Shown here: piece by piece, positions 25,421 to 47,588 of the stretch
How positions within the stretch are numbered: the first letter of the stretch is position 1
Layout: the number at the start of each line of letters is the position of its first letter
IMG/VR virus record: IMGVR_UViG_3300047546_001496
Coordinates: 1-64,000 of that record
Strand: one strand, 5' to 3'
DNA: 64,000 nucleotides
Source of the DNA: a virus
Notes under the pieces: generated by a model
Seen by the model: only the letters and a program-made list of their open reading frames with translations
What the model was told of the DNA's origin: nothing
The model's database searches: none
Position numbers and translations under genes: made by a program

Positions 25421-26047
25421 TTAGTGAATCCAGTGTTGCGGAACCATATACTTAAAACCACTCTTTACTAAATGTGCAGTATGGTGATATGGTGGTGATG
25501 GTGGAAACACTATCACACTTCCCGCTTTTGGTTTTACAAAGAAATTATATGTTGATGGATTGGCCTTAGAAAAATCTTCTGCTGGAGTTGGTCCTTGAAT
25601 AGGTCCTTTAGGATCTCTAATTGTAAAAGAAATTTCTCCGCCTTCATAATCATCATTAAGATACATAACAAAAGAAACTTTTAATCTTTCGTCACCCTCT
25701 TGTTGATCAAAGTGTGCACCCATAAATGTGCCAGCCATATACTTTTTAATTGGATACATAGGAAATAGTTTTGGCTCTTCTGTAATTCCTTGAGCCTTTG
25801 CATAGTCTCTTGCTACATCATCAAATGCTTTTTGTAAAGTTTGATAAATGTAATCATTTTTTTCATCTGTACCCTCTGTAGGTTTGATGGTTTTGTCAGT
25901 TCCATACACATATGGTTGACCACTACATGCCATCCACTCGCCCCACTCATCCTGGTTATCTTTTTCAATTGCCTGAACAAGTTTGGCTGGATCTTCAATT
26001 ACATTTGTGTAATAATAAACTTTTTCTTCTAATATTTGTAGATTCAT
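25421..26047 (-). CDS. 2OG-Fe(II) oxygenase, prolyl 4-hydroxylase-like
   Basis: HFD...YLNDDYEGGEI...HTAHLVKSGFKY. Confidence 0.88.
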   Translation of the reverse strand: MNLQILEEKVYYYTNVIEDPAKLVQAIEKDNQDEWGEWMACSGQPYVYGTDKTIKPTEGTDEKNDYIYQTLQKAFDDVARDYAKAQGITEEPKLFPMYPIKKYMAGTFMGAHFDQQEGDERLKVSFVMYLNDDYEGGEISFTIRDPKGPIQGPTPAEDFSKANPSTYNFFVKPKAGSVIVFPPSPPYHHTAHLVKSGFKYMVPQHWIH

Positions 26048-26057
26048 CTTAACTCCT

Positions 26058-26714
26058 TTAGTATTTATTGTTATCATAAAAGCCTCTAACTTTTATGAAC
26101 CCAACTAAAACATATCTAATTGGACCTTCTCCTACATGTCTTACGCCATGCTCGTACTCTTCGTTCCCTGGAAATATAAGCAGTTCTCCTGGCTTTGGCC
26201 GTAAATCTATATTTTTATTTTTAAAAAATAGAGTTCCGTCCGTGTAGTCATCATTAATATATAGTATAGCAGCATATCTAATAGATGGGTCTGTATGCTG
26301 GTCGGTATGAGCCTTTAACTCTACTCCTTTTTGCATTCTTTGTAATGTTGCAAAGCCAGTCAGCATTAGATCTGGATGGTTGATTGCAATAAGTGCATGC
26401 ATTCTTGCTTGTAATGTAGCAGATATACTAGAGGACCCAATATCAAGATTTTTATCATCCCAGCCTTTTGTTATTTCATATTTGCCCTCAGCAACTAAGT
26501 TTTCTACATCATCTCTTCCAAATTTTTCTAAACAAAATCTAGCAAGACTTTCTCTATATGCCTTAAACCAAGTTTCTTCTGGTGTATTGTCAATAATCTC
26601 AAGAAGTTTATTTACTTCATCTTTAGATGCAAAATTACGAACAACAAGAATTTCCTCATGGGCTATTTCTGTATCAAATCCCGAATCATTAAATTCTTTT
26701 TCTAAAAATAACAT
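26058..26714 (-). CDS. 2OG-Fe(II) oxygenase, prolyl 4-hydroxylase-like
   Basis: HTD...YINDDYTDGTL...HGVRHVGEGPIRY. Confidence 0.88.
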   Translation of the reverse strand: MLFLEKEFNDSGFDTEIAHEEILVVRNFASKDEVNKLLEIIDNTPEETWFKAYRESLARFCLEKFGRDDVENLVAEGKYEITKGWDDKNLDIGSSSISATLQARMHALIAINHPDLMLTGFATLQRMQKGVELKAHTDQHTDPSIRYAAILYINDDYTDGTLFFKNKNIDLRPKPGELLIFPGNEEYEHGVRHVGEGPIRYVLVGFIKVRGFYDNNKY

Positions 26715-26715
26715 A

Positions 26716-27459
26716 TTAGTTTTCCACCTTGTATTGCTTACCTTCTTGATCTATTTTATATCCCTTTTTTAATAGATCTTGCCACTCTGCTCTTTCAATT
26801 TCCTGCTTGGCTCTTGTTTCTTTCATCTCGGCTGCCCAGGCATCTCTGAGTTCTTGTGGGTATGCATCTTCCTCACGATCATCCCAGAAAGATCCGATGG
26901 TATATCTAATTCCTGATTTAATTAATGTTACTTCATGCATATTATTAAACCCCCCATCAAATGCAGCAAGCATTCCTACTTTTGGTTGAATGCTTATTCC
27001 TTGACTTGGAAATTGCAAAAGACCTCCTTTAAAATTATCATTTAAATATAAAAATGCAGCATATCTACTTCTGGTAAATGCTCCAGAGTTTCCATGTTCA
27101 TCTGTATTGTCAGAATGAATTCTTGCATATGCGCCTGGCTCCCATTTTTGTGTATGATATCCAATTTGAGAAATTATCTTAGGGTCAAGATCATGAACAG
27201 ATGCAACTGCATTAATAATTCCCTGTTTAATTTGTGTAAAAATATCCGAAGGCAATCCTTCTGAAATTACATGTTCATCATTATCTTGTGGAAGAACAGA
27301 AGAGTATGATTCATAAAAAGATATTGGCATCCAATTAATGCTTCCTAATTCTGCATGCTTATCTAAAACCTTTATAAGTTTTGCAGAAGTTTCTGAATCA
27401 ATAAAGTTTTCATAAATAACAATATCTTTAGTTATTCTTTTTTTATTTTCTAAATTCAT
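26716..27459 (-). CDS. 2OG-Fe(II) oxygenase, prolyl 4-hydroxylase-like
   Basis: HSD...YLNDNFKGGLL...HEVTLIKSGIRY. Confidence 0.88.
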   Translation of the reverse strand: MNLENKKRITKDIVIYENFIDSETSAKLIKVLDKHAELGSINWMPISFYESYSSVLPQDNDEHVISEGLPSDIFTQIKQGIINAVASVHDLDPKIISQIGYHTQKWEPGAYARIHSDNTDEHGNSGAFTRSRYAAFLYLNDNFKGGLLQFPSQGISIQPKVGMLAAFDGGFNNMHEVTLIKSGIRYTIGSFWDDREEDAYPQELRDAWAAEMKETRAKQEIERAEWQDLLKKGYKIDQEGKQYKVEN

Positions 27460-28334
27460 CGTATCCTAACTCCTTCTGTAATAAAGTCTCTCTGTGGAGC
27501 ATATTGTTTCATCATTTCTTTGTGAAGTTCTGCCCAAACCTCTACTCCGTGTTCTTTTTCTTTTTCAAACCATTCTTTATCGCCTACATCATATTTTGTC
27601 CAATAAGTTCTTATTAAATACTTTTCTGTACCACTAGATGGGCAGACACCGTGAAGATACGGCTCATTGTTTTTAGATAGTACTTCTGGGTGCCCGCTTG
27701 GAAAAACAATCCAGTCACCTGCCACAGGTTTATATTTTATTAAATTACCATCAATATAAAAGTCAAGTTCTCCACCCTCATAATCATCATTAAAATAATA
27801 ATTAGCAGTTATTGCAAACTTATATCCTGGTTTTTTGATTGGCTCTCTCATATAATCAGAATGATAGCGCATTGCCATTGGTGTTGTCATGTCTTTACGA
27901 TATTGACATATAGATGGTCCATCATTTCCCCATAATGGTATCTCTTCTCCATTGTGAGTTTTAATAAGTTGTTCTTTATTAAAATTAATTTTTTCTTTAT
28001 ATTTAGAAATGTAGGCATCTGTAACTTTGTCGTAGCCTTTGCTTACCTCAAGTAAAAAATATTTTTGATCTTCTTGTATTTTACTTTTAGTTGGTAAATT
28101 GTTTATAGTTTCAAAATCAAATTTAGTAGGTTTATTGGTTCTTGGGTCTAATTTAACAAGATCTGGAAAGGCATGCTTTATATACTTACCAAAACCTTGC
28201 CAAGCAGACCATTCTCCTAAAATTCTATCTTCATTGTTGTCTGTAGATTCTTTAACTATTTCGTATAATTTCTGTGGATTATCCATAACATTTTGATAGA
28301 TAATTATATTTTCATATAGTTCTATTTCTTTCAT
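27456..28334 (-). CDS. 2OG-Fe(II) oxygenase, prolyl 4-hydroxylase-like
   Basis: HSD...YFNDDYEGGEL...HGVCPSSGTEKY. Confidence 0.88.
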   Translation of the reverse strand: MKEIELYENIIIYQNVMDNPQKLYEIVKESTDNNEDRILGEWSAWQGFGKYIKHAFPDLVKLDPRTNKPTKFDFETINNLPTKSKIQEDQKYFLLEVSKGYDKVTDAYISKYKEKINFNKEQLIKTHNGEEIPLWGNDGPSICQYRKDMTTPMAMRYHSDYMREPIKKPGYKFAITANYYFNDDYEGGELDFYIDGNLIKYKPVAGDWIVFPSGHPEVLSKNNEPYLHGVCPSSGTEKYLIRTYWTKYDVGDKEWFEKEKEHGVEVWAELHKEMMKQYAPQRDFITEGVRIR

Positions 28335-29092
28335 TAGTTTCTCCTAATTCCATTTTCTGGATCCCATGCTTTTATTACTTCGTCATTAGGAAAAATTCTG
28401 TAATATTGTTTATTATTGTCTGGCTTTATTTCTCCAGTATGTTCTAGTATTTCCCAAAAAAATGGGCAAGTATATCTTACTCCATTTTTAATTTTTGTAA
28501 CACCATGCACATAATTCATATCGCCTGGAAAAAAGTAAGCAGATCCTCTCTTTGGTTTAAACTGTATACCTTGGTTTGGAAAATATAATTCTCCACCTTC
28601 ATAGTCATCATTTATATAAAATAAACTTGCTATATCGTAATTAGGAAAATCGTTTGGAGTTCCTGCGTCTTCGCCTTGATGTAACTCTTTATCTGCATGG
28701 GGCATTTGAAATTGTCCTGGCAGCCACTTTACAATTGTTTGACCTGTAGGCTGAACCTTTACATTAAAAAATTTTTCAATTACTGGTTGTAGTTTATTAA
28801 ATAAACCAATTATAACTGGAACAATATTTGGATCATTCTGATTAAGAGATGGTGCGCTTGCAACTCTATCTTTCCAGTATTCAGCATCATATATTACAGT
28901 TCCATTTTCATTTTTATGGCTTTCTGTTATATCCCAAACTGTTATTGCTCTGGCTGCTTTATCTAAAAAGTCAACCTCTTGCTGAGTCATAAAGTTTTCT
29001 AGTTCAACAATATTTTCTGGGCCATGGCCAAAAAATCCTGATGGTGTGCTTGATGGCTTTCTAAATACTGTTATGGCATCTTCTGGCTTCAT
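28334..29092 (-). CDS. 2OG-Fe(II) oxygenase, prolyl 4-hydroxylase-like
   Basis: HAD...YINDDYEGGEL...HGVTKIKNGVRY. Confidence 0.88.
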   Translation of the reverse strand: MKPEDAITVFRKPSSTPSGFFGHGPENIVELENFMTQQEVDFLDKAARAITVWDITESHKNENGTVIYDAEYWKDRVASAPSLNQNDPNIVPVIIGLFNKLQPVIEKFFNVKVQPTGQTIVKWLPGQFQMPHADKELHQGEDAGTPNDFPNYDIASLFYINDDYEGGELYFPNQGIQFKPKRGSAYFFPGDMNYVHGVTKIKNGVRYTCPFFWEILEHTGEIKPDNNKQYYRIFPNDEVIKAWDPENGIRRN

Positions 29093-29100
29093 AATAACAA

Positions 29101-29580
29101 TTATATCACAGGAATATAATCCTGAGCCTTTGCCTTTATACCTAAGTTATTAAAGAATCTTTCAATATTAAATCTCCAATTATCTCTTCCAAAAGATGTT
29201 CCTATTCTAATACATAAAGTCTCAAAGTCTTCTTCAGATAATTTATCTTTAATTTGTAGAAGTGCATTAGTTATATCTATATAATTTTGTCTTACAAAAG
29301 ATGGGTCTCCCGCTTGATTTCTTTTTAACACCTTTGTATTTATCTTGCCCGATGGTTCATAAAGAGATACTGTTAGATAGTTTTTTGCAAATCCAGCATC
29401 TTTATACATTTCATAACCAGCAACTGCATCAACAACATTATCGTAAGAAATTATAGATCTCACTGGCGATTCTCCATCTCTGGCGACCGTAATAATATAA
29501 TGACTTATTTTTTGTTCTTTAGCATTAGAAATATATTCACTTATAATGTCATTATGGCTTGTTTTTAATTGATCGTTCAT
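29101..29580 (-). CDS. hypothetical protein within oxygenase cluster
   Basis: 159-aa ORF overlapping the previous stop codon. Confidence 0.65.
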   Translation of the reverse strand: MNDQLKTSHNDIISEYISNAKEQKISHYIITVARDGESPVRSIISYDNVVDAVAGYEMYKDAGFAKNYLTVSLYEPSGKINTKVLKRNQAGDPSFVRQNYIDITNALLQIKDKLSEEDFETLCIRIGTSFGRDNWRFNIERFFNNLGIKAKAQDYIPVI

Positions 29581-30287
29581 TTTATACCTGAATTGTCAAC
29601 AACATTTAACTTTAAACTTTTTACTTCATGGGAACCCAAAGAATTACCTTCTTCATCTACAGCCTCTCTATACCAGTCTGTCCATTCTCCAGAAGAGTTT
29701 ATTACTTGTGCTGCTTCTCCATATTTTACATTTGCTTGTTGTCTTTTTCTATCTGGATCTTGATATGCAACTATATTTAAAGTTGTATTATTTAAATCTG
29801 TTAAAGAAATTGGAATAATTGTTGCTATTGGCGTACCTGCTTTAATTATTGTTTCTTGATTTGCCTTTTTTGCTTTAAGTGCAAGTGGAAGCGGATTATC
29901 ATAAAAAGAAGTACTAATTAAATTTGACATCGTCTCAAAATCTTCATTAAAATAATTAACTGGATTAATAGTTAAAAGACTAATATTTTTACTTGTTCTA
30001 AAAATTAATGAAGTATTTAAACTAATTGAAGACTGTCCCCTTCCAGAATAGGCACCTTCTGGGCTACTAATTACTACATGTGTATGAGTTTGATCATTTA
30101 TTCCATCCCATGTAAAAACAATATCTTCTTTACAAGAAAGACTCCAGCCAATTACATTTGCCTGTGTTACTGGAAAACATCTATATGCATGTTTTTCTGC
30201 AGTTAAATCCATCCAGTCTCTTTTAATTGACATTGGTTGAATATTAAATTGACAACCATGTAATTTTTCTACAGTTATATCTAGCAT
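29577..30287 (-). CDS. DUF6065-like protein
   Basis: RDWMD...HAYRCFPVTQANVIGW motif as I recall it for DUF6065; not confirmed by search. Confidence 0.6.
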   Translation of the reverse strand: MLDITVEKLHGCQFNIQPMSIKRDWMDLTAEKHAYRCFPVTQANVIGWSLSCKEDIVFTWDGINDQTHTHVVISSPEGAYSGRGQSSISLNTSLIFRTSKNISLLTINPVNYFNEDFETMSNLISTSFYDNPLPLALKAKKANQETIIKAGTPIATIIPISLTDLNNTTLNIVAYQDPDRKRQQANVKYGEAAQVINSSGEWTDWYREAVDEEGNSLGSHEVKSLKLNVVDNSGIK

Positions 30288-30970
30288 TATTCATCTGCCC
30301 ACTTTGGATCATACATATCTGGTGTGTGATACTTTTTGCTATAATCCAACATGGTTACAATTGAATACTTGGTTCCAGAATGTACTGGCATTGCTTGGTG
30401 TGGATACATAAAGTTTGAAGGGAAAATATATAAATCTCCTGCTTTTGGCTTTATATTAAGATTTAAAAGTCTAAAATAAAGTTCTCCTCCATCATAGTCA
30501 TCATTGATATATGCAACTAAAGAAACTGTGCAATTATAAGAAAATCCATGATCATGATGTTCTTTAAAGTGTTGGCCTGGACCATACTTAATAAAATTAA
30601 ATGCTTCCCAATATTTAAGAGGCATAATGTTGTGATCTCTTCTATAATCCTCTACTGCTGGAGCCTGAACATCATAAACATCTTGCCATATCTTTTGTAA
30701 AAACAAAGAATCTTCACTAGTATCTGACTCAATATCAGTTTTTTTAAATTTAAAATCAAAACAATCACGGTACTCTGGCATTAGTTGTTGATATCCAACA
30801 TATGCTGGTAGCCAGTGATACCTTTTGCCTGATGGAGATAACTCACCCCATGGTGCTGGTTCTCCCAATGTACTTTCTAATCTATTAATAATATCCAGTT
30901 CTGGCTTAATTACTCCACGATAGCAAGTAATACCAAATCCTAAAGTTTCTTTATCTGTCCAGGTTGTCAT
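30287..30970 (-). CDS. 2OG-Fe(II) oxygenase, prolyl 4-hydroxylase-like
   Basis: HHD...YINDDYDGGEL...HQAMPVHSGTKY. Confidence 0.88.
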   Translation of the reverse strand: MTTWTDKETLGFGITCYRGVIKPELDIINRLESTLGEPAPWGELSPSGKRYHWLPAYVGYQQLMPEYRDCFDFKFKKTDIESDTSEDSLFLQKIWQDVYDVQAPAVEDYRRDHNIMPLKYWEAFNFIKYGPGQHFKEHHDHGFSYNCTVSLVAYINDDYDGGELYFRLLNLNIKPKAGDLYIFPSNFMYPHQAMPVHSGTKYSIVTMLDYSKKYHTPDMYDPKWADE

Positions 30971-30978
30971 TGTTACTC

Positions 30979-31758
30979 CTATTTATACTCTCTTCTTGTC
31001 CAAACTTTATCTTTGTATACCCCGCCATCTGGTTGGCGATAAAAGTTTGCGTTATCTACCATTTTAGCATATATAGTTGATGAATCAGAAATCTCAATCT
31101 GATGCTCCCAATTTTCTCTTAAAAATGGAAGTACTTGTAAAAATGGAGTTCCTGCTGGAATTGTTCCTTCCCACCCATCAATAATAAAAAATGGAAAACT
31201 GCCTAATAATTCAACCTTGTCTGAGTCTACAATTCCAGTAGTATTCATAAATGGCAAATCAAACCTATTCATTGGTGTCATAAATAAAGCACTATAACCT
31301 TCTGGTAATTTCATTCCCCAGTCTGGCATCCACGCAAAATGCGTTTTATAATATCCTCTTGGATGTTCAAATTGTGGCATAGGTGGTCTTACTGTACAAA
31401 AATCTTTATACATTGTATTTTCAACTTTAACATCTAAAGATCCAGCACTATTTTTGGTAAATATTAAATCACATGGTGTCTTGAAAACATATCCAGTCAT
31501 AAAGGCATCCATAATTGCAGGACATGCCTTCCATGTTGGTATCATTCCATAGTCGTCTACTGTACCCTCTTTAGGAAATGGACAAACTTCCTTTGGTGCC
31601 TTATAATATTCTCCGCTAATTGGGTTTTTAGCAAACCTATCTGCATCTTTATACCATTGTGGGATTTCTTTTTGTGTTGATGAAGGTGTAGACTTACTTT
31701 CTTTTGTAAGCCACGGTCTATAAGATTTAAATATTACTGGTTTATAATTAGTATCCAC
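30979..31758 (-). CDS. DUF6065/dUTPase-like beta-clip protein
   Basis: PQWYK...KACPAIMDA..GY, GIVDSD, IPAGTPFLQVLPF motifs. Confidence 0.5.
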   Translation of the reverse strand: MDTNYKPVIFKSYRPWLTKESKSTPSSTQKEIPQWYKDADRFAKNPISGEYYKAPKEVCPFPKEGTVDDYGMIPTWKACPAIMDAFMTGYVFKTPCDLIFTKNSAGSLDVKVENTMYKDFCTVRPPMPQFEHPRGYYKTHFAWMPDWGMKLPEGYSALFMTPMNRFDLPFMNTTGIVDSDKVELLGSFPFFIIDGWEGTIPAGTPFLQVLPFLRENWEHQIEISDSSTIYAKMVDNANFYRQPDGGVYKDKVWTRREYK

Positions 31759-32470
31759 CCTTATGTCCTAACTCATTAATATCAGTCATGATTACGACAC
31801 AATACTTTGTACCGCTCTTCATTGGAAGAGATGCATGCTCATAAATGTAGTTAGATGGAAAGATAGCGATATCTCCTACTTTTGGAGTAAGGGTATATCC
31901 ATCCAATCTTGGAAATTGAATTTCTCCACCCTCATAATCATCGTTTATATATATAACTGCAGAAACTGTAGCATTATATGCTGGACCATGATCTGCATGA
32001 ATATTGAAGTGTTTTCCTTCGCCCTCATACTTTACAAAATTAAATGCTTCATAATAGATAACATTAATTCCCCAATATCTTGCATAATCATCTATACAAA
32101 ATTTTAGTTTTTGATATATTTCTTCATGAAGATCAATAAGTTCGCCATTAAATTCATCTCTTGGACCAAGGTTTTCTTGCTTATATTTAAAATCTACACA
32201 GTCTCTTGCTCTCTTGATAGGGGTTGAAGAATTTGTTACTTGCGCTTCAGACCATTTATATCTTTTTGTTCCATCAAGATTTGACTCAAGAGTTTTTATA
32301 TATCTATCTGCATCATCTTGAGAAAATACATTTCTATAAATATTTAGGCCAAGTCCTGGATTTTCTACAACTATACCATTTGATAAAGTTTTTGTAGGAT
32401 ATCTATTTGATGCAGTTTCTGACCTATCTTTTGTAAACCAAGGATTTTGATTTTCATCATAAATTTCCAT
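31748..32470 (-). CDS. 2OG-Fe(II) oxygenase, prolyl 4-hydroxylase-like
   Basis: HAD...YINDDYEGGEI...HASLPMKSGTKY; close paralogue of 30287..30970 (shared EAFNFxKY, RDCxDFK). Confidence 0.88.
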   Translation of the reverse strand: MEIYDENQNPWFTKDRSETASNRYPTKTLSNGIVVENPGLGLNIYRNVFSQDDADRYIKTLESNLDGTKRYKWSEAQVTNSSTPIKRARDCVDFKYKQENLGPRDEFNGELIDLHEEIYQKLKFCIDDYARYWGINVIYYEAFNFVKYEGEGKHFNIHADHGPAYNATVSAVIYINDDYEGGEIQFPRLDGYTLTPKVGDIAIFPSNYIYEHASLPMKSGTKYCVVIMTDINELGHKGGY

Positions 32471-32495
32471 TTGACTAACCTTTCAGTAATTAAAG

Positions 32496-32933
32496 TTATG
32501 CTATTTCGCTAAAAGAAGTTCCATCCCAGTTATAAGAAAATCCTAACAAAAGATTTTGACTTGATGGTACCTTAAGCAAACTCATACCTGTCGCAACTGC
32601 TGCTGCATACATTTCTTTTTTTGGGCTATTTGTTGCAATTGCTACTCTAGCAACAACAGTATTATTAGATAAAAATGCATATAGGTCAAATGAATCTAGT
32701 TCTTCTTGTGTTGCACTTGCTAAATTTGGACCTGCTGTTCCACCAGAAAAAGATGATCCGTTCCAGGTCGCTCCATAAAGTGCTGTTTGTTTATATGAAC
32801 TTGCATCAATTGCTGTTATTGGTAAACCAGTTTCCCATGCAGAATCTAAAGTTTCCATTACCTCATTTTTTTGATGACTAAAAAATCCAATGACATCATA
32901 TACATTATCATTTTTTACTACAACTGCATACAT
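32496..32933 (-). CDS. small fibre-associated protein with internal duplication
   Basis: Two half-repeats (YAxxxxNxxV ... G/FxxWN/DGxSFS). Confidence 0.55.
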   Translation of the reverse strand: MYAVVVKNDNVYDVIGFFSHQKNEVMETLDSAWETGLPITAIDASSYKQTALYGATWNGSSFSGGTAGPNLASATQEELDSFDLYAFLSNNTVVARVAIATNSPKKEMYAAAVATGMSLLKVPSSQNLLLGFSYNWDGTSFSEIA

Positions 32934-33009
32934 TAATAGTCTCCTTTAGTACTTTTATTATAGCACATGTTAGTTATTGGGTACATATTTTTGTATGTAC
33001 CCGCTAACT

Positions 33010-33960
33010 TTAACAAGCACATGTTCTTCCTGGACAACATACGTTACATCTCCAGCAATATCCGCAGAAACAGCCTCCGAAAGATGGTGGGAAGAATGGG
33101 AAGTAAGGGAAGAATGGGAAGAATGGTGGGAAGAATGGGAAGTAAGGGAAGTAAGGGAAGAATGGTGGGAAGAATGGGAAGTAAGGGAAGTAAGGGAAGA
33201 ATGGTGGGAAGAATGGGAAGTAAGGGAAGAATGGGAAGAATGGTGGGAAGAATGGGAAGTAAGGGAAGAATGGGAAGAATGGTGGGAAGAATGGGAAGAA
33301 TGGAAAGAATGGGAAAAACGGCGGGAAGAATGGGAAATAAGGTGGGGTAGTGGTAACATTGTTTGTAGTTACACCAGTTGATTCTCCGCATGCATTTGTT
33401 AGATAAATTGTATATGTTTGTGATCCTGGAGATGATCCAGGGTCATTAGCAGCATATGATGTAGCAGATCCAGATATACCAGTATAACTTGATCCATCTG
33501 AACCAGTAATTCTGATCGATGTTATTGTGCTACCTCCAGTTGCTGATCCGCTTGGAAGAGTCCATGATATTGTATTTGTATTAGCAGATGTAGCAGATGC
33601 TGAAACTCCTGTAGCATTGCTTGGACTTGTTGTAACTGTTACTGAAGATGAAGCAGATGATGCTGCTGATGTTCCAGAAGCATTTGTTGCTGTTACTGTA
33701 AATGTAGGTGTTGCTCCTGCAGCAATGCCAGTTACAGTAATTGGGGATGATGCTCCTGATGCTGACTGACCAGTGCTTGCATAAACAGTATAAGAAGTTG
33801 CTGGAGGGGATCCTGCAGGCAATGCAAAAGCAACTGATACAGCACCGTCATTATATGCTCTACCAGTACATACGTTGGTTGGAACAACACTAATTGGTGG
33901 CTTTGGCTCTAAGAAGTCGTTTGCTGCTGCTGACTTTTTACCTACTTTTTTATTTGCCAT
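33010..33960 (-). CDS. fibronectin type III-like protein with Pro/Phe/Tyr repeat and Cys-rich C-terminus
   Basis: Two FnIII-like modules (SYTVYAS...FTVTATNASG; ISWTLP...YTIYLTNACG), then ([13 protein letters not shown])6, then [20 protein letters not shown]. Confidence 0.8.
   Translation of the reverse strand: MANKKVGKKSAAANDFLEPKPPISVVPTNVCTGRAYNDGAVSVAFALPAGSPPATSYTVYASTGQSASGASSPITVTGIAAGATPTFTVTATNASGTSAASSASSSVTVTTSPSNATGVSASATSANTNTISWTLPSGSATGGSTITSIRITGSDGSSYTGISGSATSYAANDPGSSPGSQTYTIYLTNACGESTGVTTNNVTTTPPYFPFFPPFFPFFPFFPFFPPFFPFFPYFPFFPPFFPFFPYFPFFPPFFPYFPYFPFFPPFFPYFPYFPFFPPFFPFFPYFPFFPPSFGGCFCGYCWRCNVCCPGRTCAC
33084..33347 (-). repeat. 39-bp coding tandem repeat (about 6.5 units; 13-aa PFFPPFFP[F/Y]FP[F/Y]F)
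   Basis: GAATGGTGGGAAGAATGGGAAGTAAGGGAAGAATGGGAA units read directly on the plus strand. Confidence 0.95.
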
Positions 33961-39164: not shown

Positions 39165-39413
39165 TTATAAAATATAGTTGCTATATCCTATAATTTGTAG
39201 TGGGATTGGGGGTGGATTATTCTTAGAATACCCAAACGAACTAACATTAATAAACTGCACTCTAAAAGGCAAAACCTCCTGTAGTTTAACCTTTGGTGTT
39301 ATATCATTTATTCTTATTGATCTTTTGTCTAATTCTTTAATCTGAGCATGTGCTAAACGATGTGTTGTATTATAAACTTCTTTATAGGCAGGGGTTAAAT
39401 TTTGATTTATCAT
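39165..39413 (-). CDS. hypothetical protein
   Basis: 82-aa ORF coupled to the upstream gene. Confidence 0.55.
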   Translation of the reverse strand: MINQNLTPAYKEVYNTTHRLAHAQIKELDKRSIRINDITPKVKLQEVLPFRVQFINVSSFGYSKNNPPPIPLQIIGYSNYIL

Positions 39414-39799: not shown

Positions 39800-39817
39800 A
39801 ATGCGATTATATCATAT

Positions 39818-40336: not shown

Positions 40337-40356
40337 AGAAAATAATTATACCATGT

Positions 40357-40386
40357 TTGACTAAATCCCCTAAATTGTGTTATACT
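40357..40386 (+). promoter_or_regulatory. sigma70-type promoter for the transglycosylase gene
   Basis: TTGACT-18nt-TATACT with TGn extension; back-to-back with a minus-strand TGGTATAAT. Confidence 0.7.
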
Positions 40387-40442
40387 AGGAAGTAATATGG
40401 CACCCTTTAACAAGGTGTCATTACGTTTCTAAGGAGGAAACT

Positions 40443-41006
40443 ATGATTAACTTTATGAATAATAATAGGCAAATCATTGGCACACTCAGCATATTAGCAA
40501 TGTTTGGCGTTTGGTCAAATGCTGCTAATGCTTCTGAAAACCGATTAAGTGACAGTAAATCTGTCATGCTACAGGGATCTTTGATGGCCACGGAAGTGGC
40601 CAAAAGTGTTTCTATGGCTAAAGAAGATCAGTTAGAAAAATATAAAAGTGCTATAAATCTATCTGACAAAGACCTTAAAAACTTACTATCTTTAGTAGGT
40701 TTTGAAGGCGAAAATCTTAAGGAGGCTTGGGCTTTTGCTAAAAAAGAATCTAATGGAAGACCTTTAGCCCTTAATATTAGTAAAAGAACTGGAGATAGTT
40801 CTTATGGCTTATTTCAAATAAATATGATTGGCGACCTAGGTCCTGACCGTAGAGATAAGTTTAATTTAGAGTCCAATGTTGAACTCTTTAATCCAGTACT
40901 AAATGCTCAAGTAGCATACCACATGAGCAACGGTGGAAAAGACTGGACTGCATGGAAAGGCATTACACCAAAGGTGAAGTCGTTAATGCGTAACTTTCCC
41001 AATTAA
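40443..41006 (+). CDS. secreted SLT-type lytic transglycosylase
   Basis: Signal-peptide-like N-terminus (…NAANA); catalytic AKKESNG, SYGLFQIN and WTAW motifs; AAGGAGG RBS. Confidence 0.85.
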   Translation: MINFMNNNRQIIGTLSILAMFGVWSNAANASENRLSDSKSVMLQGSLMATEVAKSVSMAKEDQLEKYKSAINLSDKDLKNLLSLVGFEGENLKEAWAFAKKESNGRPLALNISKRTGDSSYGLFQINMIGDLGPDRRDKFNLESNVELFNPVLNAQVAYHMSNGGKDWTAWKGITPKVKSLMRNFPN

Positions 41007-41740
41007 TAGTTGATAAAATTATTATGGCTTCCGTGATAATATTTTATAGGAAGACGCTTATAATCATCTTTATCAAATAAATAGTAGAGGGCCTCCCCCC
41101 ACAAGGGGAGGTCTCCCCATCTATAGATATAAATATTATTTGAATTATCAACTTTTTCTATATATTCTTTTAATTCGTTATTTGCTCTTATTTTATCTAA
41201 ATTAAAACCTACTAAATTTGTATATGGTCCAGATGGACTTTTTGGACCTTTGTCTGTTTTTATATTCTCTAATGAAAAATTGTTTAGTCCTTTTGTAACA
41301 TTATCATTATCAGCAGACCATTCGCCATATACACATACATTATTTTTTAATTCGTCAAAAATATTATCAATGTTGCTTCTTATTAAACAATCATCATCAA
41401 TTCTTAATACTAAATTATATGCATCTAAATATTTTAAAAAATCTATAAACCAAAAATGACACATGTGCCTATATGCCCAACTAAATCCTAAGCCAGACTC
41501 TTTATCAAATTCTATATTATTTATGGGAGTAAACTCTGGTATTGTAATAAAATTTAAACATAAAGATGTTTTAGACCTAATATGTCTTTGATTTTCAAAA
41601 CTAATATTTCCTTCATGAAAAATTAAAATATCATAATTATCATTAATGTTTTCTTCAATAAATTTATTTCTAATTATAAGATTGCCATAGTCATAATTAC
41701 CAGAATAACCTTTGCATAAAGTGATTATTGCTTTTTTCAT
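41003..41740 (-). CDS. glycosyltransferase, GT15 (KRE2-like alpha-mannosyltransferase)-like
   Basis: YRHMCHFW, RIDDD (DxD) and IYIYRWGDLP motifs. Confidence 0.75.
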   Translation of the reverse strand: MKKAIITLCKGYSGNYDYGNLIIRNKFIEENINDNYDILIFHEGNISFENQRHIRSKTSLCLNFITIPEFTPINNIEFDKESGLGFSWAYRHMCHFWFIDFLKYLDAYNLVLRIDDDCLIRSNIDNIFDELKNNVCVYGEWSADNDNVTKGLNNFSLENIKTDKGPKSPSGPYTNLVGFNLDKIRANNELKEYIEKVDNSNNIYIYRWGDLPLWGEALYYLFDKDDYKRLPIKYYHGSHNNFINY

Positions 41741-42693
41741 TAATTTTCTCCTGGTATGTCTATATATTTTATACCATCTAAATTATACATCCAGTGTGGT
41801 CTGTTGCCTTCTATAAAATTAACATTAATTTCTTCTAAACCATCTACTCCATATATAAGTCTTTTATCTATTACTGGACTATATGTTTTTGCAGTTTTAG
41901 ACAAAAAGCATGCCCACCAACTAAAACTACTATTTGCTCTAAATACTGTTCTTGCAAAATATATTTTTAAAAAGTCTTCTAGCCAGTCAAACATTAGTCC
42001 TGGTCTATAGTTAGATCCTTCGGGATATCTCCATCCAAAATTTTCTATTTTTGGCCTATCTAAATGCCAAAGATTTTTATCATCATCTGAGATCCATAAA
42101 ATTTTATTTTTATCAAAATTAAATTTTTCAAAAGCATTAAAGTAAGAATCTTTTGAAATTACAGAATATCCTTGAGTATTATTTTTATTATAATTTACAT
42201 CAGAAATATCTCCTCTTCTTAAATGAGCAACATCATATGTTCCTTGTTTATTGCTCCAATACTTGTATGCTTCTGTATTTTTTACTTCATCTGAAAATTC
42301 AAAAACTTCTAATAAAAAATTTTTTGACATTTTACTATAAACATCAGATCCATAAGCGCATACGCTATCAAAAAATACTGGATCTAAATATTTTGCATAA
42401 TTATATGGAGCCTGTTCAGGATTTATTAAAAATGAATTTGGATAAATATCTTTTACTTTTTTTATTAGTGCATTTCTTGTATGATGTGCTGGATGACTCT
42501 GATTTAACTGATGTCTTAATTCATCATTTTCAGAAACTATATGAAATTGATTTTTAAATAATTTTGTTCCTTCCCAATCTGATGGCAGGACAAACTGAGA
42601 ACCTGTTAATTTATTGTATGTAGCGCCATAAGCATACTGGTGCATTCGATTGCCAAACCTGCCATGCCAATGTGATAAAAGTATAAAAGACAT
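41740..42693 (-). CDS. glycosyltransferase, GT11 alpha-1,2-fucosyltransferase-like
   Basis: GRFGNRMHQYA, HLRRGD, SDD and NSSFSWW motifs. Confidence 0.82.
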   Translation of the reverse strand: MSFILLSHWHGRFGNRMHQYAYGATYNKLTGSQFVLPSDWEGTKLFKNQFHIVSENDELRHQLNQSHPAHHTRNALIKKVKDIYPNSFLINPEQAPYNYAKYLDPVFFDSVCAYGSDVYSKMSKNFLLEVFEFSDEVKNTEAYKYWSNKQGTYDVAHLRRGDISDVNYNKNNTQGYSVISKDSYFNAFEKFNFDKNKILWISDDDKNLWHLDRPKIENFGWRYPEGSNYRPGLMFDWLEDFLKIYFARTVFRANSSFSWWACFLSKTAKTYSPVIDKRLIYGVDGLEEINVNFIEGNRPHWMYNLDGIKYIDIPGEN

Positions 42694-42700
42694 AAGAATA

Positions 42701-43726
42701 TTATATCTTAGACTTTATCCATTCATATGTTTTTGTTATTCCTTCTAATAATGACATAGAATAATCCCAATTTAATTTTTCTCTAATAAGTGTATTGTCT
42801 GAATTTCTACCACGAACTCCAGTTGGTCCATCTATGTGTATTTTATTTAATTTTTTATTTTCTATAGAACATGCAATATCCACTAACTCATTTATTGATA
42901 CACGCTCTTCTGAGCCTATATTAATTGGACCAGTAAAGTTAGATTTCATTAATTGTCTGGTTGCCTCTATACATTCATCAATATATAAAAATGATCTAGT
43001 TTGATTTCCATCTCCCCAAATTTCTATTGAGTCTGTAGCCTGTATTACTTTTCTACATATTGCTGCTGGAGCCTTTTCTTTTCCGCCCTGCCAAGTACCC
43101 TCTGGCCCATATATATTATGATATCTGGCTACTGCAACTGGTATATTATAATTTTTATTGAATGCTAAAAATATTCTTTCACTAAATAATTTTTCCCAAC
43201 CATACTCGCTGTCTGGTTCTGCAGGGTATGCGTCAGACTCTTTTAATCCTAAATTATCAATGTCCATTTGTTTATATTCTGGATATGCACAGGCAGAACT
43301 TGAATAAAATATTTTAGTTTTATTTATTAATTTTTCAGAATTAAGTCTTAGTTGTGCTCTTAACAAATTAAGATTAATTAGTGCAGAATTTTCCATAATG
43401 TTTGCATCATTGTCTCCAGTAAATATATATCCTGCTCCACCCATGTCTGCTGCAAACTGATACACCTCATCAAATGTATCTACTAACTGATATGGTATTT
43501 CTCTATAAAAATTTCCAGAGTATCCTTTAAATTTAATTACCTTTTCCATATTTTCATAATCTGAAAGATCTCTAATGATAAATTCATCAGCCTTCGTTTT
43601 AGAAAATGGTGGCTCTTTAATGTCAACACCTCTAACCCAATAGCCTTCTTCTTTAAGTCTATTTACCATATGGTTTCCAATAAAACCACCAGCGCCTAAG
43701 ACTAATGCTGTCTTCATTGTCATCAC
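42701..43726 (-). CDS. GDP-mannose 3',5'-epimerase-like NAD-dependent epimerase
   Basis: GAGGFIG, AADMGGAG, YSSSACAYP, YGWEK, GGKEKAPAAICRK, GVRGRNSDN. Confidence 0.88.
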   Translation of the reverse strand: MMTMKTALVLGAGGFIGNHMVNRLKEEGYWVRGVDIKEPPFSKTKADEFIIRDLSDYENMEKVIKFKGYSGNFYREIPYQLVDTFDEVYQFAADMGGAGYIFTGDNDANIMENSALINLNLLRAQLRLNSEKLINKTKIFYSSSACAYPEYKQMDIDNLGLKESDAYPAEPDSEYGWEKLFSERIFLAFNKNYNIPVAVARYHNIYGPEGTWQGGKEKAPAAICRKVIQATDSIEIWGDGNQTRSFLYIDECIEATRQLMKSNFTGPINIGSEERVSINELVDIACSIENKKLNKIHIDGPTGVRGRNSDNTLIREKLNWDYSMSLLEGITKTYEWIKSKI

Positions 43727-44277
43727 ATCGATTCTTTATCTTTTTCTTTTCTTATATGGGTATATAAATATTCTGGTCCTTCTGTAAAATACCAATGATC
43801 TGGCTTACAATAAAATAAAAATATATTACAAACCATATTATTATCTGGATCTGTAAATTCTTCTCTCCAGTGTTCTTGATCATTACCGTATGTCATTAAT
43901 GCATCATTTTCCATTAATGTGTATGGCTTTCCCTCTACCCATAAATCCCAAGGTGTCTTTTGAAATACACAAAAGTTGATATGGTATGTACAAGCATTAT
44001 CATCTTTATGCTTCCAGAGTTTTGCATCTTTACCCTCGTAAATTGACATTAAGCACCAGGAAGGTAGTATGTCGTCTTCTTCAAAATGTTCTCTTGCTAA
44101 ATCTAATAACTTATTATGTAAATCTTTAAGTTCTTCTGTGTTAGCCCATTGATGTCTGCCAAAAGAATTATCATAATTTGGCTGTGTTGACCACATCCTC
44201 ATGGCATATTGTTGTATTTTTTTTAAATCTTCTGCAGGCAAAATTGTTTTAACAATTTCAGGTTCTTTAATCTTCAT
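43723..44277 (-). CDS. 2OG-Fe(II) oxygenase (divergent family)
   Basis: LWKHKD...EHWRE metal-binding triad; cupin-like strand pattern. Confidence 0.7.
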   Translation of the reverse strand: MKIKEPEIVKTILPAEDLKKIQQYAMRMWSTQPNYDNSFGRHQWANTEELKDLHNKLLDLAREHFEEDDILPSWCLMSIYEGKDAKLWKHKDDNACTYHINFCVFQKTPWDLWVEGKPYTLMENDALMTYGNDQEHWREEFTDPDNNMVCNIFLFYCKPDHWYFTEGPEYLYTHIRKEKDKESM

Positions 44278-44278
44278 C

Positions 44279-44518
44279 TTACCATTTTCCTATAGGACAT
44301 GTTGCTTTTTCTAATTTTGTTTTTGCTACCATAAAACAACCACATTTTTTACATTGTTTAGTTAATTTAATTAATTCTGGACATTGCTTACATATAGAAT
44401 ATCTTTCTTCTGCTACCTCGTCAGATGCCCACTCTGTTTCTGGATTAACCAAATCCCATGGCCTTGTATCTCCAAGATTTTCTTTATATTTTTGCCATGC
44501 AGTTTTCTTTTCTGACAT
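44279..44518 (-). CDS. small Cys-rich protein (DUF6171-like)
   Basis: CxxC...CKKCGCF...K...CPIGKW; paralogue of 54661..54861. Confidence 0.7.
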   Translation of the reverse strand: MSEKKTAWQKYKENLGDTRPWDLVNPETEWASDEVAEERYSICKQCPELIKLTKQCKKCGCFMVAKTKLEKATCPIGKW

Positions 44519-44556
44519 AAAACTCCTTATTTTTATAAGTATTTATACATTATACA

Positions 44557-46137
44557 CTAACAAGCGCAATCTTGTCCAGGGCAGCAAACATTACATCTCC
44601 AGCAGTATCCGCAGGTACATGGACCAGTCGGTGTCGGTGTTGGTGTCGGTGATGGTGGGAAATACGGGAATGATGGTCCGACAGGTTCAAATGTTGGGAA
44701 GAACGGCGGGAAGAATGGGAAGTAAGGGAAGAATGGGAAGAACGGCGGGAAGAATGGGAAGTAAGGGAAGAATGGGAAGAACGGCGGGAAGAATGGGAAG
44801 TAAGGGAAGAATGGGAAGAACGGGAATGAAGGACCAGGTGCTGTTGTAAAACATTCTCCTAAACTACTATCCCAATAATATCCGCAAGCCTGGCATCCAC
44901 TTTGTGTTAATAACCATATATTTTCAGGAGCACATTGATTTGTAGGTGTTGGCGTAGGAGTAGGAGTTGGTGTAGGAGTAGGAGTTGGTGTAGGAGTTGG
45001 GGTTGGAGTAGGTGTAGGTGTTGGGGTTGGTGTAGGTGTAGGAGTTGGGGTAGGTGTAGGTGTTGGGGTAGGTGTTGGGGTAGGTGTTGGCGTAGGTGTT
45101 GGGGTAGGTGTTGTGCAAGATGGTGTTCCAGATTGAGGGGTAGATCCGCAAACCCATCCTATTGGAGGATAGCCGTTTGCATTTTCTTGCGTTGTGTACA
45201 AAGTAGCGCAATCAATATTAAATGGTCCAAAAGGTCCTTGTGGAGATCCATTTAACGCACAATATCCATAGTAGTTAGTAACAGAAACTGGTGTAGGTGT
45301 CGGAGTTGGAGTAGGTGTCGGAGATGGAGTTGGTGTCGGAGTAGGTGTTGGAGTTGGAGTAGGTGTCGGAGTTGGTGTCGGAGTTGGTGTCGGTGTTGGT
45401 GTTGGTGTAGGTGTTGGTGTCGGTGTTGGAGTTGGTGTTGGGTTTGAAGGCATTACGCATTCTCCCAACTGTTCATCCCAGACCAATCCACACTGAGCAC
45501 ATTGTGACGAACTTAATAAACTCCAGTCTCCATCACATATACTGGTTGGAGTAGGTGTTGGTGTCGGTGTCGGGGTAGGCGTTGGTGTTGGTGTCGGGGT
45601 AGGAGTTGGTGTTGGGGTTGGAGTTGAACTACACCCAATACCCTCATAGAACATTAATCCAGAAGAACCGTCTGAACACTTATACCATTTTTGTTGATAA
45701 TTGCTACATCCTGGGCAAGATCCGTCTGGACATGATCCAATATAAATACCGCCACTAACTACGCCATATGTAGCATCATTTGGACAAATTACTGTCGGAG
45801 TTGGAGTAGGAGTTGGTGTTGGCGTAGGAGTAGGAGTTGGTGTAGGAGTTGGGGTTGGAGTAGGTGTAGGTGTTGGGGTTGGTGTAGGTGTAGGAGTTGG
45901 AGTAGGTGTAGGTGCACAACTTGCAGTTCCTTCAGATACAGTTGCACCGCAAGCCCATCCATTTGGCGGGTATCCATTTGTATAATCAAACTCATTATAC
46001 AAAGTATTGCAAAGAGAAGTTACTCTATCTTGCTCTGTAGTTCCTTGTACATTTCTAGATGTATTATACGGACCAACTAATTGATATGTTCCTTGATCAC
46101 AATAGGAGTACCAAACCCCCGTTAGATAAAAGGTGAA
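44557..46137 (-). CDS. C-terminal part of (Pro-Thr)n / Cys-module / PFF-repeat fibre protein (in the -1 frame of 46122..47588)
   Basis: Frame is open from 46137 with no ATG; [18 protein letters not shown]... upstream of the annotated TTG (46002) is homologous to a module in 46122..47588. Confidence 0.75.
44695..44826 (-). repeat. second [13 protein letters not shown] 39-bp tandem array (about 3 units)
   Basis: GAACGGCGGGAAGAATGGGAAGTAAGGGAAGAATGGGAA units. Confidence 0.9.
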
Positions 46138-46952
46138 CTACACTGTCCTCCAGACCATGTATATCCACAACTTGTACATTGAGTTGAATTAGTTATGCTA
46201 CCCGCATTCTCTGGATCTGGACATGTCAACGTGGGGGTCGGTGTCGGAGTTGGAGTTGGAGTAGGGGTAGGTGTTGGTGTCGGTGTTGGTGTTGGGGTTC
46301 CTCCACATGATAGTGTTGGAATTGTTCCAGAAACTCCAGACTGTGTTTGTGTAATAGAACCTCCAGAACATTGTGAATTCATAGAAGCATAAGCCTCAGT
46401 AAATCCAGAACTACTTATTCCAGTTACTTGAGATCCAGTAGTGCTACAGCATCCTGTTGCCCAATATTGATTACCTACTGGTGTAGGAGTAGGTGTAGGT
46501 GTAGGTGTTGGAGTTGGGGTAGGTGTTCCTCCACAACTTGCAGTTCCTGCTGCTTGTGTTGCTCCACAAGCCCATCCATTTGGTGGATATCCGTTTGTAT
46601 AATCCCACTCATTGTAAAGATTATTACATATTGAAGAAACTGTGCCTACTGCTGAATAAGAGTATGGTCCTGATAATTGATAAGTTCCTTGATCACACCA
46701 ACTGTACCATACCGTCGTTTGGCTAGATGTAGGTGTTGGGGTAGGAGTAGGTGTTGGGGTTGGTGTTGGGGTAGGTGTAGGGGTTGGAGTAGGTGTTGGG
46801 GTAGGTGTAGGTGTAGGAGTTGGAGTTGGCGTAGGATTAAAGAATGGGAATGATGGATTAAAGAATGGGAATGATGGTGGTGTAGGAGATGGAGTAGGCG
46901 TAGGTGTTGGAGTAGGTGTTGGGGTTGGTGTGGGAGTTGGTGTCGGGGTAGG
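44940..46952 (-). repeat. multiple (Pro-Thr)n hexanucleotide arrays
   Basis: About eight GGxGTx tracts encoding PTPTPT linkers of up to about 55 aa between Cys-rich modules. Confidence 0.9.
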
Positions 46953-47588
46953 CGAAGAAGATTCTGCTATATCACCATAAGTAATCCATGTATCTGAACC
47001 TAATTTAAGTAAAGTTATTTTTCCATATTGGGCATCAATAGAGGCAGTTCCACCTTTTGCATAAACGGTTACTCCTGGGACACCAGAAACTGTAACATTT
47101 CCAGTACCCATTCTAATAATATTTATTTTTTGTCCAACTATAAATGGAGTTGTGCTATTTAATGGAATAGAAATTGTTGTATTGGTTGCAGAATTAACAG
47201 TTATTGTTTTACCTGGATCTGAAATAGCAATTGTATAGTTTTCGTCTTTAGAGACAAATGTTTCTGTGTCTAGTAATCCAATCCATTGTGTGCCATTGTA
47301 AATTTGTAGTTGATCTATATCGGTTCCACTATCGGTTTGTCTAACAAAACAAATAATACCTTTTTGTGGATTTGTAATTGCAGCATCTCTAGCAGTAGGA
47401 TTTAAAAATAAATTAACGCCACCCTTTGCACGAATAACATCATTAAAGGTTACTGGTTGTCCGAATGTATGAACTTGTGTCCATGTATATGGAACATTTG
47501 TATTCGCAACACCAGCAAGTGCATACCACTTTTCAGTTGCAGAGTCATATGCATATACTACTTTACTACCTGGAGCGATTTGTGCCAT
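46122..47588 (-). CDS. fibre-like protein, N-terminal part, with (PT)n linkers and Cys-rich modules
   Basis: TWITYGD domain homologous to the C-terminus of 33987..36587, followed by PT repeats and PSFPFFN repeats. Confidence 0.8.

Follow-up and report, generated by a model that had tools for sequence, protein, structure and literature searches.

This work examines a 64-kb window (positions 1 to 64,000 of IMG/VR virus record IMGVR_UViG_3300047546_001496, the whole stretch of DNA that was analyzed) and, within it, two gene cassettes in which fiber-associated, proline-rich repeat proteins are encoded next to predicted 2-oxoglutarate (2OG)- and Fe(II)-dependent oxygenases of the prolyl 4-hydroxylase (P4H) type. 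The window is the first part of a 95,378-bp record with an estimated completeness of 87%. Its genes for a portal, a maturation protease, a major capsid protein, and a tape-measure-like protein of 3,030 amino acids (aa) mark it as a tailed phage. In a megablast search, the region as a whole gave zero matches to cultured phages, and the best cultured-phage matches to the capsid protein are Streptomyces phages at 39% identity; the phage therefore has no annotated close relative. An actinobacterial host may be indicated by PASTA domains, by the PT linkers, and by the affinity of the capsid. Every gene of both cassettes lies on the minus strand, inside one long co-oriented run. A promoter/terminator scan found no transcription boundary separating the fiber genes from the enzyme genes, and promoter-like sites in the window were no more common than in shuffled sequence.

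Cassette A: a fiber, a PFF-repeat protein, and an oxygenase array

Cassette A opens with an 866-aa tail-fiber-like protein (positions 33987 to 36587), which starts with an Mtd_N domain (Pfam, E = 1.9e-15), matches many PHROG tail-fiber families, and ends in ...TWVVYGDLK, a C-terminal TWxxYGD domain. In relatives, this fiber gene is always found upstream of the gene for a fibronectin type III (FnIII)-repeat protein. Here, that gene (33010 to 33960) encodes 316 aa and is the candidate substrate of the cassette, referred to as substrate A. Its own fn3 match is weak (E = 4e-4), while those of its relatives reach 4e-12. A repeat scan places a 39-nt (13-aa) period at 33084 to 33342, with 6.6 copies and 94% matches; the PFF repeat makes up the last third of the protein. 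All 29 database homologs of the PFF region, which come from metagenomes and phages, are either unnamed or annotated merely as fibronectin type III. The protein ends in an 8-Cys tail. This tail recurs in cassette B (33010 to 33078 and 44557 to 44625) as a motif ending in (V/I)CCPGxxCxC, with 8 Cys per 20 residues; in appearance it recalls a metallothionein or a disulfide knot, and it gave no match to any known family. Relatives carry other types of Cys-rich tail, e.g., CIRNYCYEPCPSCC.... Between substrate A and the oxygenases lies a 145-aa protein (p145; 32496 to 32933) with no family match, the position of which is kept in relatives, where it is sometimes swapped for, or accompanied by, a small Cys-rich DUF6171 protein. 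An initial annotation of this DNA, made from the letters and open reading frames (ORFs), had listed a TWxxYGD-type fiber, an FnIII protein with a PFF repeat and a Cys tail, and a small protein at these positions, and all three are present as described.

The same annotation called seven P4H-like oxygenases downstream, and these calls hold throughout: each of the seven ORFs scores above the PF13640 cutoff of 27 bits (34 to 57 bits) and retains the HxD...H iron triad and, after it, a basic K/R residue of the kind that binds 2OG. In order of transcription, the array comprises ox7 (31748 to 32470; PF13640, E = 3e-11), ox6 (30287 to 30970; E = 3.9e-15, with a Bacillus anthracis P4H as best PDB match at 1e-6), ox5 (28334 to 29092), ox4 (27456 to 28334), ox3 (26716 to 27459), ox2 (26058 to 26714), and ox1 (25421 to 26077). 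H138, D140, and H191 do not vary across eight aligned paralogs, and K/R-Y comes after them in each. When the paralog profile was compared to solved structures, the first match was the B. anthracis collagen-type P4H (6e-15), followed in order by P3H1, PBCV-1 vCPH (3e-8), other and algal P4Hs, PHD2, PKHD/PiuC hydroxylases, and lysyl hydroxylases. Tet-like and AlkB matches to this profile were marginal, appearing only near E = 1e-3; ox5 gave a weak Tet_JBP match (4.7e-4) under the cutoff. The label "P4H-like" is thus justified at the family level by sequence, and substrate specificity is beyond what the sequences of the array enzymes can tell. The array also contains a 159-aa protein (29101 to 29580) that the initial annotation lacked; it has no family match and occurs in some related arrays.

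Two further proteins, predicted at the outset to be DUF6065-like, are interspersed with the oxygenases. That assignment was confirmed for the protein beside ox6 (29577 to 30287) by PF19541 (1.1e-26, 94 bits against a cutoff of 26.6) and for the other, p7084 (30979 to 31758; phrog_7084, 5.6e-30), by profile comparison only: p7084 has no Pfam match, aligns to DUF6065 in hhalign with a probability of 96.8% (E = 3e-10), and would share its fold as a distant homolog. A PDB profile search with the p7084 alignment found nothing. The AlphaFold2 (AF2) model of the DUF6065 protein, which has a predicted local distance difference test score (pLDDT) of only 73, gave VIA Z scores of 9.6 to 5.1 to 22 dUTPase/Dcd chains, and the next unrelated fold scored at most 4.9. 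By this comparison, the DUF6065 model shares the β-barrel fold of the trimeric dUTPase/dCTP deaminase superfamily. No PF00692 (dUTPase) match was obtained at E ≤ 1 anywhere in the genome, and the record yielded no canonical dUTPase. DUF6065 proper was found solely inside arrays, adjoining ox6. The DUF6065/phrog_7084 family is mostly viral, with three paralogs in this genome.

Cassette B: a PT- and PFF-repeat protein and a GDP-sugar cassette

The repeat protein of cassette B (substrate B) had been described as a single protein at 47588 to 44557 with a TWxxYGD domain, (PT)n, the PFF repeat, and the Cys tail. Its features were recovered, and its continuity was not: two ORFs are present here, at 46122 to 47588 and 44557 to 46002. 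The N-terminal part (46122 to 47588) carries the TWxxYGD domain, (PT)n linkers, and small Cys-containing modules; the C-terminal part (44557 to 46137) carries (PT)n, Cys modules, the PFF repeat (44695 to 44826), and the 8-Cys tail. The frame of the downstream ORF is open up to 46137, 45 codons above the first possible start, and this open stretch encodes a conserved module that is repeated elsewhere in substrate B. Such coding content ahead of the first start indicates that the frame is broken by 1 nt close to a TTTT run at 46122 to 46140, possibly through an indel in the assembly, a genuine split of the gene, or translational frameshifting. Many relatives have a single substrate B ORF of 700 to 840 aa, and others are naturally split.

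Substrate B is linked to cassette A by both of its ends. The TWxxYGD domains of substrate B and the 866-aa fiber are homologous (35% identity over 102 aa, E = 7e-11), and at its other end the protein has the PFF repeat (3.3 copies at 44695 to 44823, 100% matches) and the Cys tail of cassette A. The DNA of the two tails differs synonymously (CCA versus CCG for Pro and, within the Cys tail, a number of third codon positions). Selection thus acts on the peptide rather than on the DNA repeat.

Substrate B is followed by a DUF6171 protein (44279 to 44518; PF19668, 7e-7), which accounts for the "Cys-rich protein" of the initial annotation, and by p184 (43723 to 44277), a 184-aa protein of phrog_2954, a family misnamed ferrochelatase. 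No Pfam match was found for p184, and a PDB sequence search gave nothing useful. Its AF2 model (pLDDT of 91) has P. putida P4H, AlkB, and vCPH as top Foldseek matches at a probability of 1.0, and H90, D92, and H136 of the HxD...H motif are invariant in 22 homologs. The oxygenase postulated for cassette B is therefore borne out by its predicted double-stranded β-helix fold and motif. The next gene (42701 to 43726) encodes a clear GDP-mannose 3,5-epimerase (GME), as first proposed: phmmer aligns residues 9 to 341, the full length, to Arabidopsis GME (2c59) at E = 3e-92, and the next enzyme class follows at 6e-23.

The last two genes are putative glycosyltransferases (GTs), originally called GT11-like and GT15-like on leads that remain below the Pfam cutoffs. 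The GT11-like (fucosyltransferase-type) protein (41740 to 42693) matches the phrog_2644 glycosyltransferase family (2.5e-8) and reaches E = 0.11 against PF01531 (12 bits versus a cutoff of 23.9; profile positions 38 to 270). An HLRRGD motif is invariant in seven homologs; HxRRGD is the GDP-sugar-binding motif of α-1,2-fucosyltransferases. A PDB search with the profile of this protein gave nothing useful. The GT15-like protein (41003 to 41740) matches PF01793 in its C-terminal part only (8.6e-4; 19.2 bits versus 25, last 56 residues), and among the Atlas neighbor clusters listed for it, PF01793 occurs in 16 to 41% of members, which is merely a lead. Both proteins may be of GDP-sugar-using types, although these calls are weak. 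NCBIfam models added nothing for the unknown proteins.

The two cassettes had been described as sharing one layout. Their orientation and gene order are indeed alike; they are not identical, since cassette B contains only one oxygenase-like gene.

Conservation of the two layouts in related phages

The arrangement is real and far more widespread than one genome. A search with the DUF6171 gene recovers at least 589 viral contigs, nearly always with an oxygenase next downstream, and complete members of the clade are about 104 to 117 kb, some with terminal repeats. Two layouts recur. In the first, a fiber gene is followed by an FnIII-repeat protein, by p145-like and/or DUF6171 proteins, and then by oxygenases in a fixed paralog order that is kept across distant relatives: ox7, ox6 plus DUF6065, p7084, ox5, ox4, ox3, (ox2), and ox1. 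In the second, a Pro-rich (often Cys-tailed) protein is followed by DUF6171 and by an oxygenase and/or p184, the series continues in many relatives with the epimerase and variable GT-like genes, and an oppositely oriented lysozyme-like gene comes last. Co-occurrence with oxygenases in relatives had been proposed as a check, and for cassette B it was seen in 33 of the 40 loci with enough flanking sequence, where DUF6171 has a Pro-rich or Cys-tailed protein on its upstream side and an oxygenase on its downstream side.

The repeat proteins themselves are variable. Linker chemistry ranges widely (PT, VTP, AVTP, APAPVP, PFF, and others), and in some phages the array is flanked by two fiber-plus-PFF gene pairs. 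The N terminus of the FnIII protein is an FnIII domain or, in one subgroup, a PASTA domain, and beyond the repeat the protein ends in a Cys-rich tail, in a Hint/intein-like domain, or in a short tail; the layout is conserved also in forms with a PASTA N terminus and with a Hint-like or Cys-tailed C terminus. In the Hint/intein-like forms (L101:1995-3524, L068:11760-13055, P0014, and P0016), a Cys directly follows the aromatic repeat and the domain ends in HN. Their identity has weak Pfam support (E = 0.016) and one precomputed PF14890 label; its presence suggests that the C terminus of the repeat is cleaved autocatalytically or transferred covalently.

Other variants depart further. The FnIII proteins of one subclade (L168 to L181; e.g., L168:10001-11530) have long (FGA)n repeats in place of PFF. 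These are reminiscent of FG-nucleoporin repeats, and Phe, not Pro, is common to all repeat types. In SPFGF-type phages, most of the array is replaced by proteins of 217 to 221 aa with HDH...GHPHG...RITIAYD motifs (L102:2777-4071, L103:13222-13887, and L173). We considered these as PF13759 oxygenases; neither search supported that assignment, and they have no Pfam match. They may be another family of metal-dependent enzymes.

The array follows the proline content of the repeat

The variation among repeats provides a comparison between repeat composition and enzyme content. In 51 nonredundant loci, each with at least 5 kb of downstream sequence, oxygenase ORFs within 9 kb downstream of the repeat gene were counted using a hidden Markov model of the window's paralogs. 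Repeats were classed as Pro-rich aromatic (PFF/PYF, PPHF, and APPGFF), Pro-free [(FGA)n], or low-Pro [(SPFGF) or (SPFGVFGF)]. All 43 loci with Pro-rich repeats have oxygenases downstream (2 to 10, median of 6), whereas each of the 5 Pro-free loci has 0; the 3 low-Pro loci have 1, 1, and 2. Arrays that were equally common without a Pro-rich repeat protein would have counted against a link between the two, and this is not what the loci display. Pro-free phages retain a reduced gene order of fiber, FnIII-(FGA)n-Hint protein, p7084, ribonucleotide reductase (RNR), a 1,240-aa protein, and portal. As forms with APPGFF repeats plus a Hint domain keep full arrays, the array follows the proline of the repeat and not the type of C-terminal domain.

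A candidate tailoring system for Pro-rich appendages

The best single explanation of these observations, to which we give about an even chance, is that the oxygenases tailor the adjacent Pro-rich appendage proteins and that the GDP-sugar cassette glycosylates one of them. The reading is partly supported, by the enzyme family, the conserved neighborhood, and the dependence of the array on repeat proline. The region as a whole is best explained as a variable appendage-tailoring block of a widespread group of aquatic tailed phages with genomes of roughly 115 kb.

In this mechanism, the substrates would be the two fiber-associated proteins ending in low-complexity repeats, (PFF/PYF)n or (PT)n plus PFF, and then in the metallothionein-like 8-Cys tail. 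Late in infection, in the cytoplasm, the adjacent P4H-type oxygenases would hydroxylate the repeat prolines and possibly other residues; these would be seven conserved, nonredundant paralogs for cassette A and one oxygenase-fold protein for cassette B. In cassette B, GME would supply GDP-L-galactose or GDP-L-gulose, with which the GT11-like and GT15-like transferases could then glycosylate linker Thr/Ser or hydroxyproline. Some relatives with Ser/Thr-free (APAPVP)n linkers still keep the oxygenase, p184, and the epimerase; the glycan, if on the linker, would therefore need hydroxyproline there. The p145 and DUF6171 proteins, always between substrate and enzymes, might serve as adaptors or chaperones. 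What the analysis shows is the gene content, the family and fold of the enzymes, the identity of the epimerase, the conserved neighborhood, and the agreement between array presence and repeat proline; the pairing of substrates with enzymes, the chemistry, a place in the virion, and a benefit to the phage are inferred.

A more far-reaching version of this proposal, which we regard as distinctly doubtful, is that these genes specify a new kind of appendage: an aromatic polyproline (PFF/PYF) rod set on an FnIII or PASTA domain, decorated by a dedicated set of 5 to 10 distinct oxygenases, possibly with hydroxylation of Pro at several positions and of Phe/Tyr, and capped by a Cys knot or attached through Hint, with this decoration as the main role of the viral P4HA genes that abound in aquatic viromes. 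Hydroxylation of Phe/Tyr on such a rod could possibly provide an adhesive or cross-linking chemistry, by analogy with mussel foot proteins. The end of the rod would be a metal- or disulfide-bonded Cys knot, or it would be covalently attached via the C-terminal Hint domain.

Alternatives and the weight of the evidence

Several observations weigh against tailoring of the repeat proteins and are set out here along with the alternatives that they bear upon. The association between repeat and array involves few independent changes. If the FnIII N-terminal domain is used for the tree, a single change suffices for "Pro-rich versus not" and 4 are required for "any Pro versus none," with only 1 to 2 independent pairs on well-supported branches. 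On trees of the flanking genes (f172 and the lysozyme-like gene), repeat types are interleaved, with 4 to 5 changes and 2 supported pairs, which looks like block exchange of the 3′ half of the FnIII gene together with the array. Every pair was concordant in an independent-pairs test of four trait/tree combinations; at most two pairs are well supported (4 to 5 on the best trees), such that significance is out of reach and a sign test is powerless. Moreover, repeat and array are adjacent, and their swapping as one block could alone give the pattern. Given the few independent changes and this physical linkage, the association weighs less than the raw counts suggest. Low numbers of independent contrasts favor a reading in which the oxygenases are generic, multicopy 2OG-Fe(II) enzymes of aquatic phages that act on targets other than the repeat proteins, such as host proteins of translation or regulation, small molecules, or the 2OG pool, and in which their adjacency to fibers reflects a shared hypervariable, recombining block. 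Cyanomyoviruses carry up to five such genes or more, for which a role in 2OG levels and NtcA signaling has been proposed (PMC3037559), and P4HA is among the most abundant viral "auxiliary metabolic genes" (AMGs), with a role called cryptic (PMC9301287). Oxygenase genes also occur away from Pro-rich proteins: a phage with the Pro-free FGA-type repeat (G001) has about eight oxygenase-like genes elsewhere, in clusters of 2 to 3 with no Pro-rich ORF nearby, the present genome has two further PF13640 genes elsewhere without Pro-rich neighbors, and related single oxygenases of a cyanomyovirus (ACG-2014b) sit among replication genes. Furthermore, seven or more distinct oxygenases are many for a substrate composed only of P, F, and Y, and a virion location of the repeat proteins follows from neighbors and domain homology only. 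We nevertheless consider generic enzymes unlikely, since the match between array and proline is perfect in the 51 loci, across three Pro-rich chemistries and differing C-terminal domains; the orthogroup order ox7, ox6 plus DUF6065, ox4, ox3, and ox1 is found only in a Pro-repeat context; and the solved structures closest to the array enzymes are those of protein prolyl hydroxylases.

The companion genes and the sugar genes raise two other alternatives. The DUF6065 and p7084 companions of the array have a predicted dUTPase rather than oxygenase fold, and p7084 adjoins the RNR gene across the clade, with or without the array; a third p7084 paralog lies at genome positions 73468 to 74235 (L097:9468-10235), beside the two further PF13640 genes. 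The neighbors there also include luciferase-like monooxygenase and peroxidase genes, with no fiber genes nearby. Array and sugar cassette might act on nucleotides or DNA (base hydroxylation and then glycosylation) along with the dUTPase-fold proteins and RNR. The fold comparison (Z of 9.6, with p7084 as a homolog), the array abutting the RNR gene, the subthreshold Tet_JBP match of ox5, the p184 fold that fits AlkB about as well as P4H, and the lack of a canonical dUTPase in the record would agree with such a role. It is highly improbable, in our judgment: the family profile favors P4H enzymes over Tet and AlkB by many orders of magnitude, and neither PF00692 nor any other dUTPase sequence match was obtained. 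Because p7084 stays by RNR in phages without an array and has its third paralog elsewhere, it looks like a separate module of possibly nucleotide-related function. For the sugar genes, no correlation was found between the epimerase/GT cassette and Thr/Ser-rich linkers in relatives: the epimerase occurs with Thr-rich and with Ser/Thr-free linkers and is missing from many PT-type relatives. These genes might instead remodel a host surface glycan (lipopolysaccharide, cell wall polysaccharide, or S-layer), e.g., for superinfection exclusion, and leave the PT-rich protein unmodified. The stretch from DUF6171 to the lysozyme-like gene carries different sets of GTs in different relatives, in the manner of surface-glycan islands, and the sulfotransferase-like, carbamoyltransferase, and halogenase genes of this genome are typical of glycan or metabolite tailoring. 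Remodeling of a host glycan strikes us as somewhat unlikely, given that the cassette lies among co-oriented fiber genes, right after the Pro-rich protein, DUF6171, and oxygenase in most relatives, and that actinophage GTs glycosylating virion proteins offer a precedent (Freeman 2023, as cited in PMC11256854). In all, the original interpretation of the oxygenases as tailoring enzymes for the neighboring repeat proteins, rather than generic metabolic genes, is partly supported by the P4H-type family, the neighborhood, and the proline-array match, and is weakened by the extra oxygenase clusters, the dUTPase-fold companions, and the question of the sugar acceptor.

Other features of the window and genome

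The sole plus-strand gene of the fiber region (40443 to 41006), which keeps its position throughout the clade, encodes a lysozyme-like protein (SLT_3) whose N terminus bears a hydrophobic, signal-like segment. At 51246 to 52106, a fiber-like protein opens with a collagen-like run of ∼10 Gly-X-Y triplets with Pro in X, making it another possible P4H substrate candidate. Beyond the window, genome positions 69508 to 90862 hold a big set of tailoring-type enzymes outside both cassettes: a TauD-family dioxygenase, the two further PF13640 oxygenases, a luciferase-like monooxygenase, a carbamoyltransferase, a tryptophan halogenase, and a cupin of the Asp/Asn β-hydroxylase family. One glutathione peroxidase and one sulfotransferase in this set are Pfam confirmed; a second peroxidase-looking ORF was judged by eye, and a second sulfotransferase candidate has no Pfam match.

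Significance and comparison with known systems

Together with ∼100 related loci, this locus offers a concrete candidate substrate, the PFF/PT-repeat proteins, for phage 2OG oxygenases, and the Pro-rich and Pro-free repeat variants form a natural contrast with a defined enzyme set. If true, the proposal would describe the first known hydroxylation, and possibly Hyp (hydroxyproline)- or Thr-glycosylation, of bacteriophage structural proteins; a major "AMG" would be reclassified as a virion maturation function; and repeats of aromatic polyproline that end in a Cys knot or a Hint domain would represent a new protein material. In the literature searched, no paper was found that describes PFF-type repeats or ties phage P4H arrays to a repeat-protein substrate. 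Multicopy 2OG-Fe(II) oxygenases of marine phages have been known, without a substrate, since 2010 (PMC3037559), and a 2OG oxygenase has been found in a cyanomyovirus virion proteome (PMC12801897). The kind of system is already known; new would be virus-encoded hydroxylation and glycosylation in tailed phages, on noncollagen aromatic polyproline repeats.

Among eukaryotic viruses, PBCV-1 encodes a P4H-type oxygenase, vCPH, and Pro-rich repeat proteins in the same genome, and its P4H has been described with Pro-rich viral substrates (Eriksson 1999, as cited in PMC9301287); vCPH is among the matches to the array profile. PBCV-1, however, a giant virus of eukaryotes, has one such enzyme and substrates of the (PAPK)n type, whereas the present system would belong to a tailed phage, with an array of 7 to 10 paralogs, aromatic PFF repeats, substrate and enzymes as gene neighbors, and an activity that is predicted. 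In mimivirus, a collagen hydroxylase and glycosyltransferases modify the virus's own structural proteins (PMC5802723 and PMC9546862). The L230 lysyl hydroxylase/glucosyltransferase and the other collagen GTs follow the same logic of hydroxylation and then glycosylation on repetitive viral fibers, and lysyl hydroxylase-type enzymes are among the matches to the array profile. Mimivirus uses an enzyme fusion, UDP-sugars, and collagen; here, the genes are separate, GDP-sugars would be used, and the host is bacterial. Gly-X-Y, the hallmark of collagen, is absent from the PFF and PT repeats and was seen only in the 10-triplet run of the 51246 to 52106 protein.

Plant and algal hydroxyproline-rich glycoproteins (HRGPs; extensins and arabinogalactan proteins [AGPs]) are similar in the proposed P4H action followed by O-glycosylation of extended Pro-rich repeats, and the AP/TP linkers of relatives resemble AGP motifs. 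Unlike in HRGPs, the Ser-Pro4 motif is absent here (no SPPPP is visible in the cassette A and B sequences, and the GTs there are GT11-like and GT15-like), and the reactions would be cytoplasmic, not secretory. The extensin/mucin analogy drawn in the initial annotation is thus best taken as a possible way of working, not as family membership.

Among phages, glycosylated mycobacteriophage virions have been reported (Freeman 2023, as cited in PMC11256854). In Che8-type mycobacteriophages, as far as that account goes, phage GTs act in the cytoplasm on structural proteins of the phage itself, as would be the case here; the modified sites are capsid and tail-tube C termini, and neither hydroxylases nor a sugar epimerase feature in it. 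The targets proposed here are PT/PFF appendage proteins, linked to their enzymes by gene neighborhood only. Cyanomyovirus oxygenases (Sullivan et al. 2010) belong to the same Pfam family, and their companion, a "ferrochelatase-domain hypothetical" protein, corresponds to p184 (phrog_2954). In Synechococcus phage S-SCSM1, tandem oxygenases flank tail-fiber genes, one of them with R/P/F-rich repeats: the "short tail fiber protein" (L099:5084-6349) has a long Arg/Pro/Phe-rich low-complexity insert, with four tandem 2OG-Fe(II) oxygenase genes upstream and three downstream. For cyanomyoviruses, proposals stop at modulation of 2OG levels and name no substrate, and the copies are mostly scattered, some among replication genes. 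The present arrays, in contrast, have a specific repeat-protein partner and depend on its proline content.

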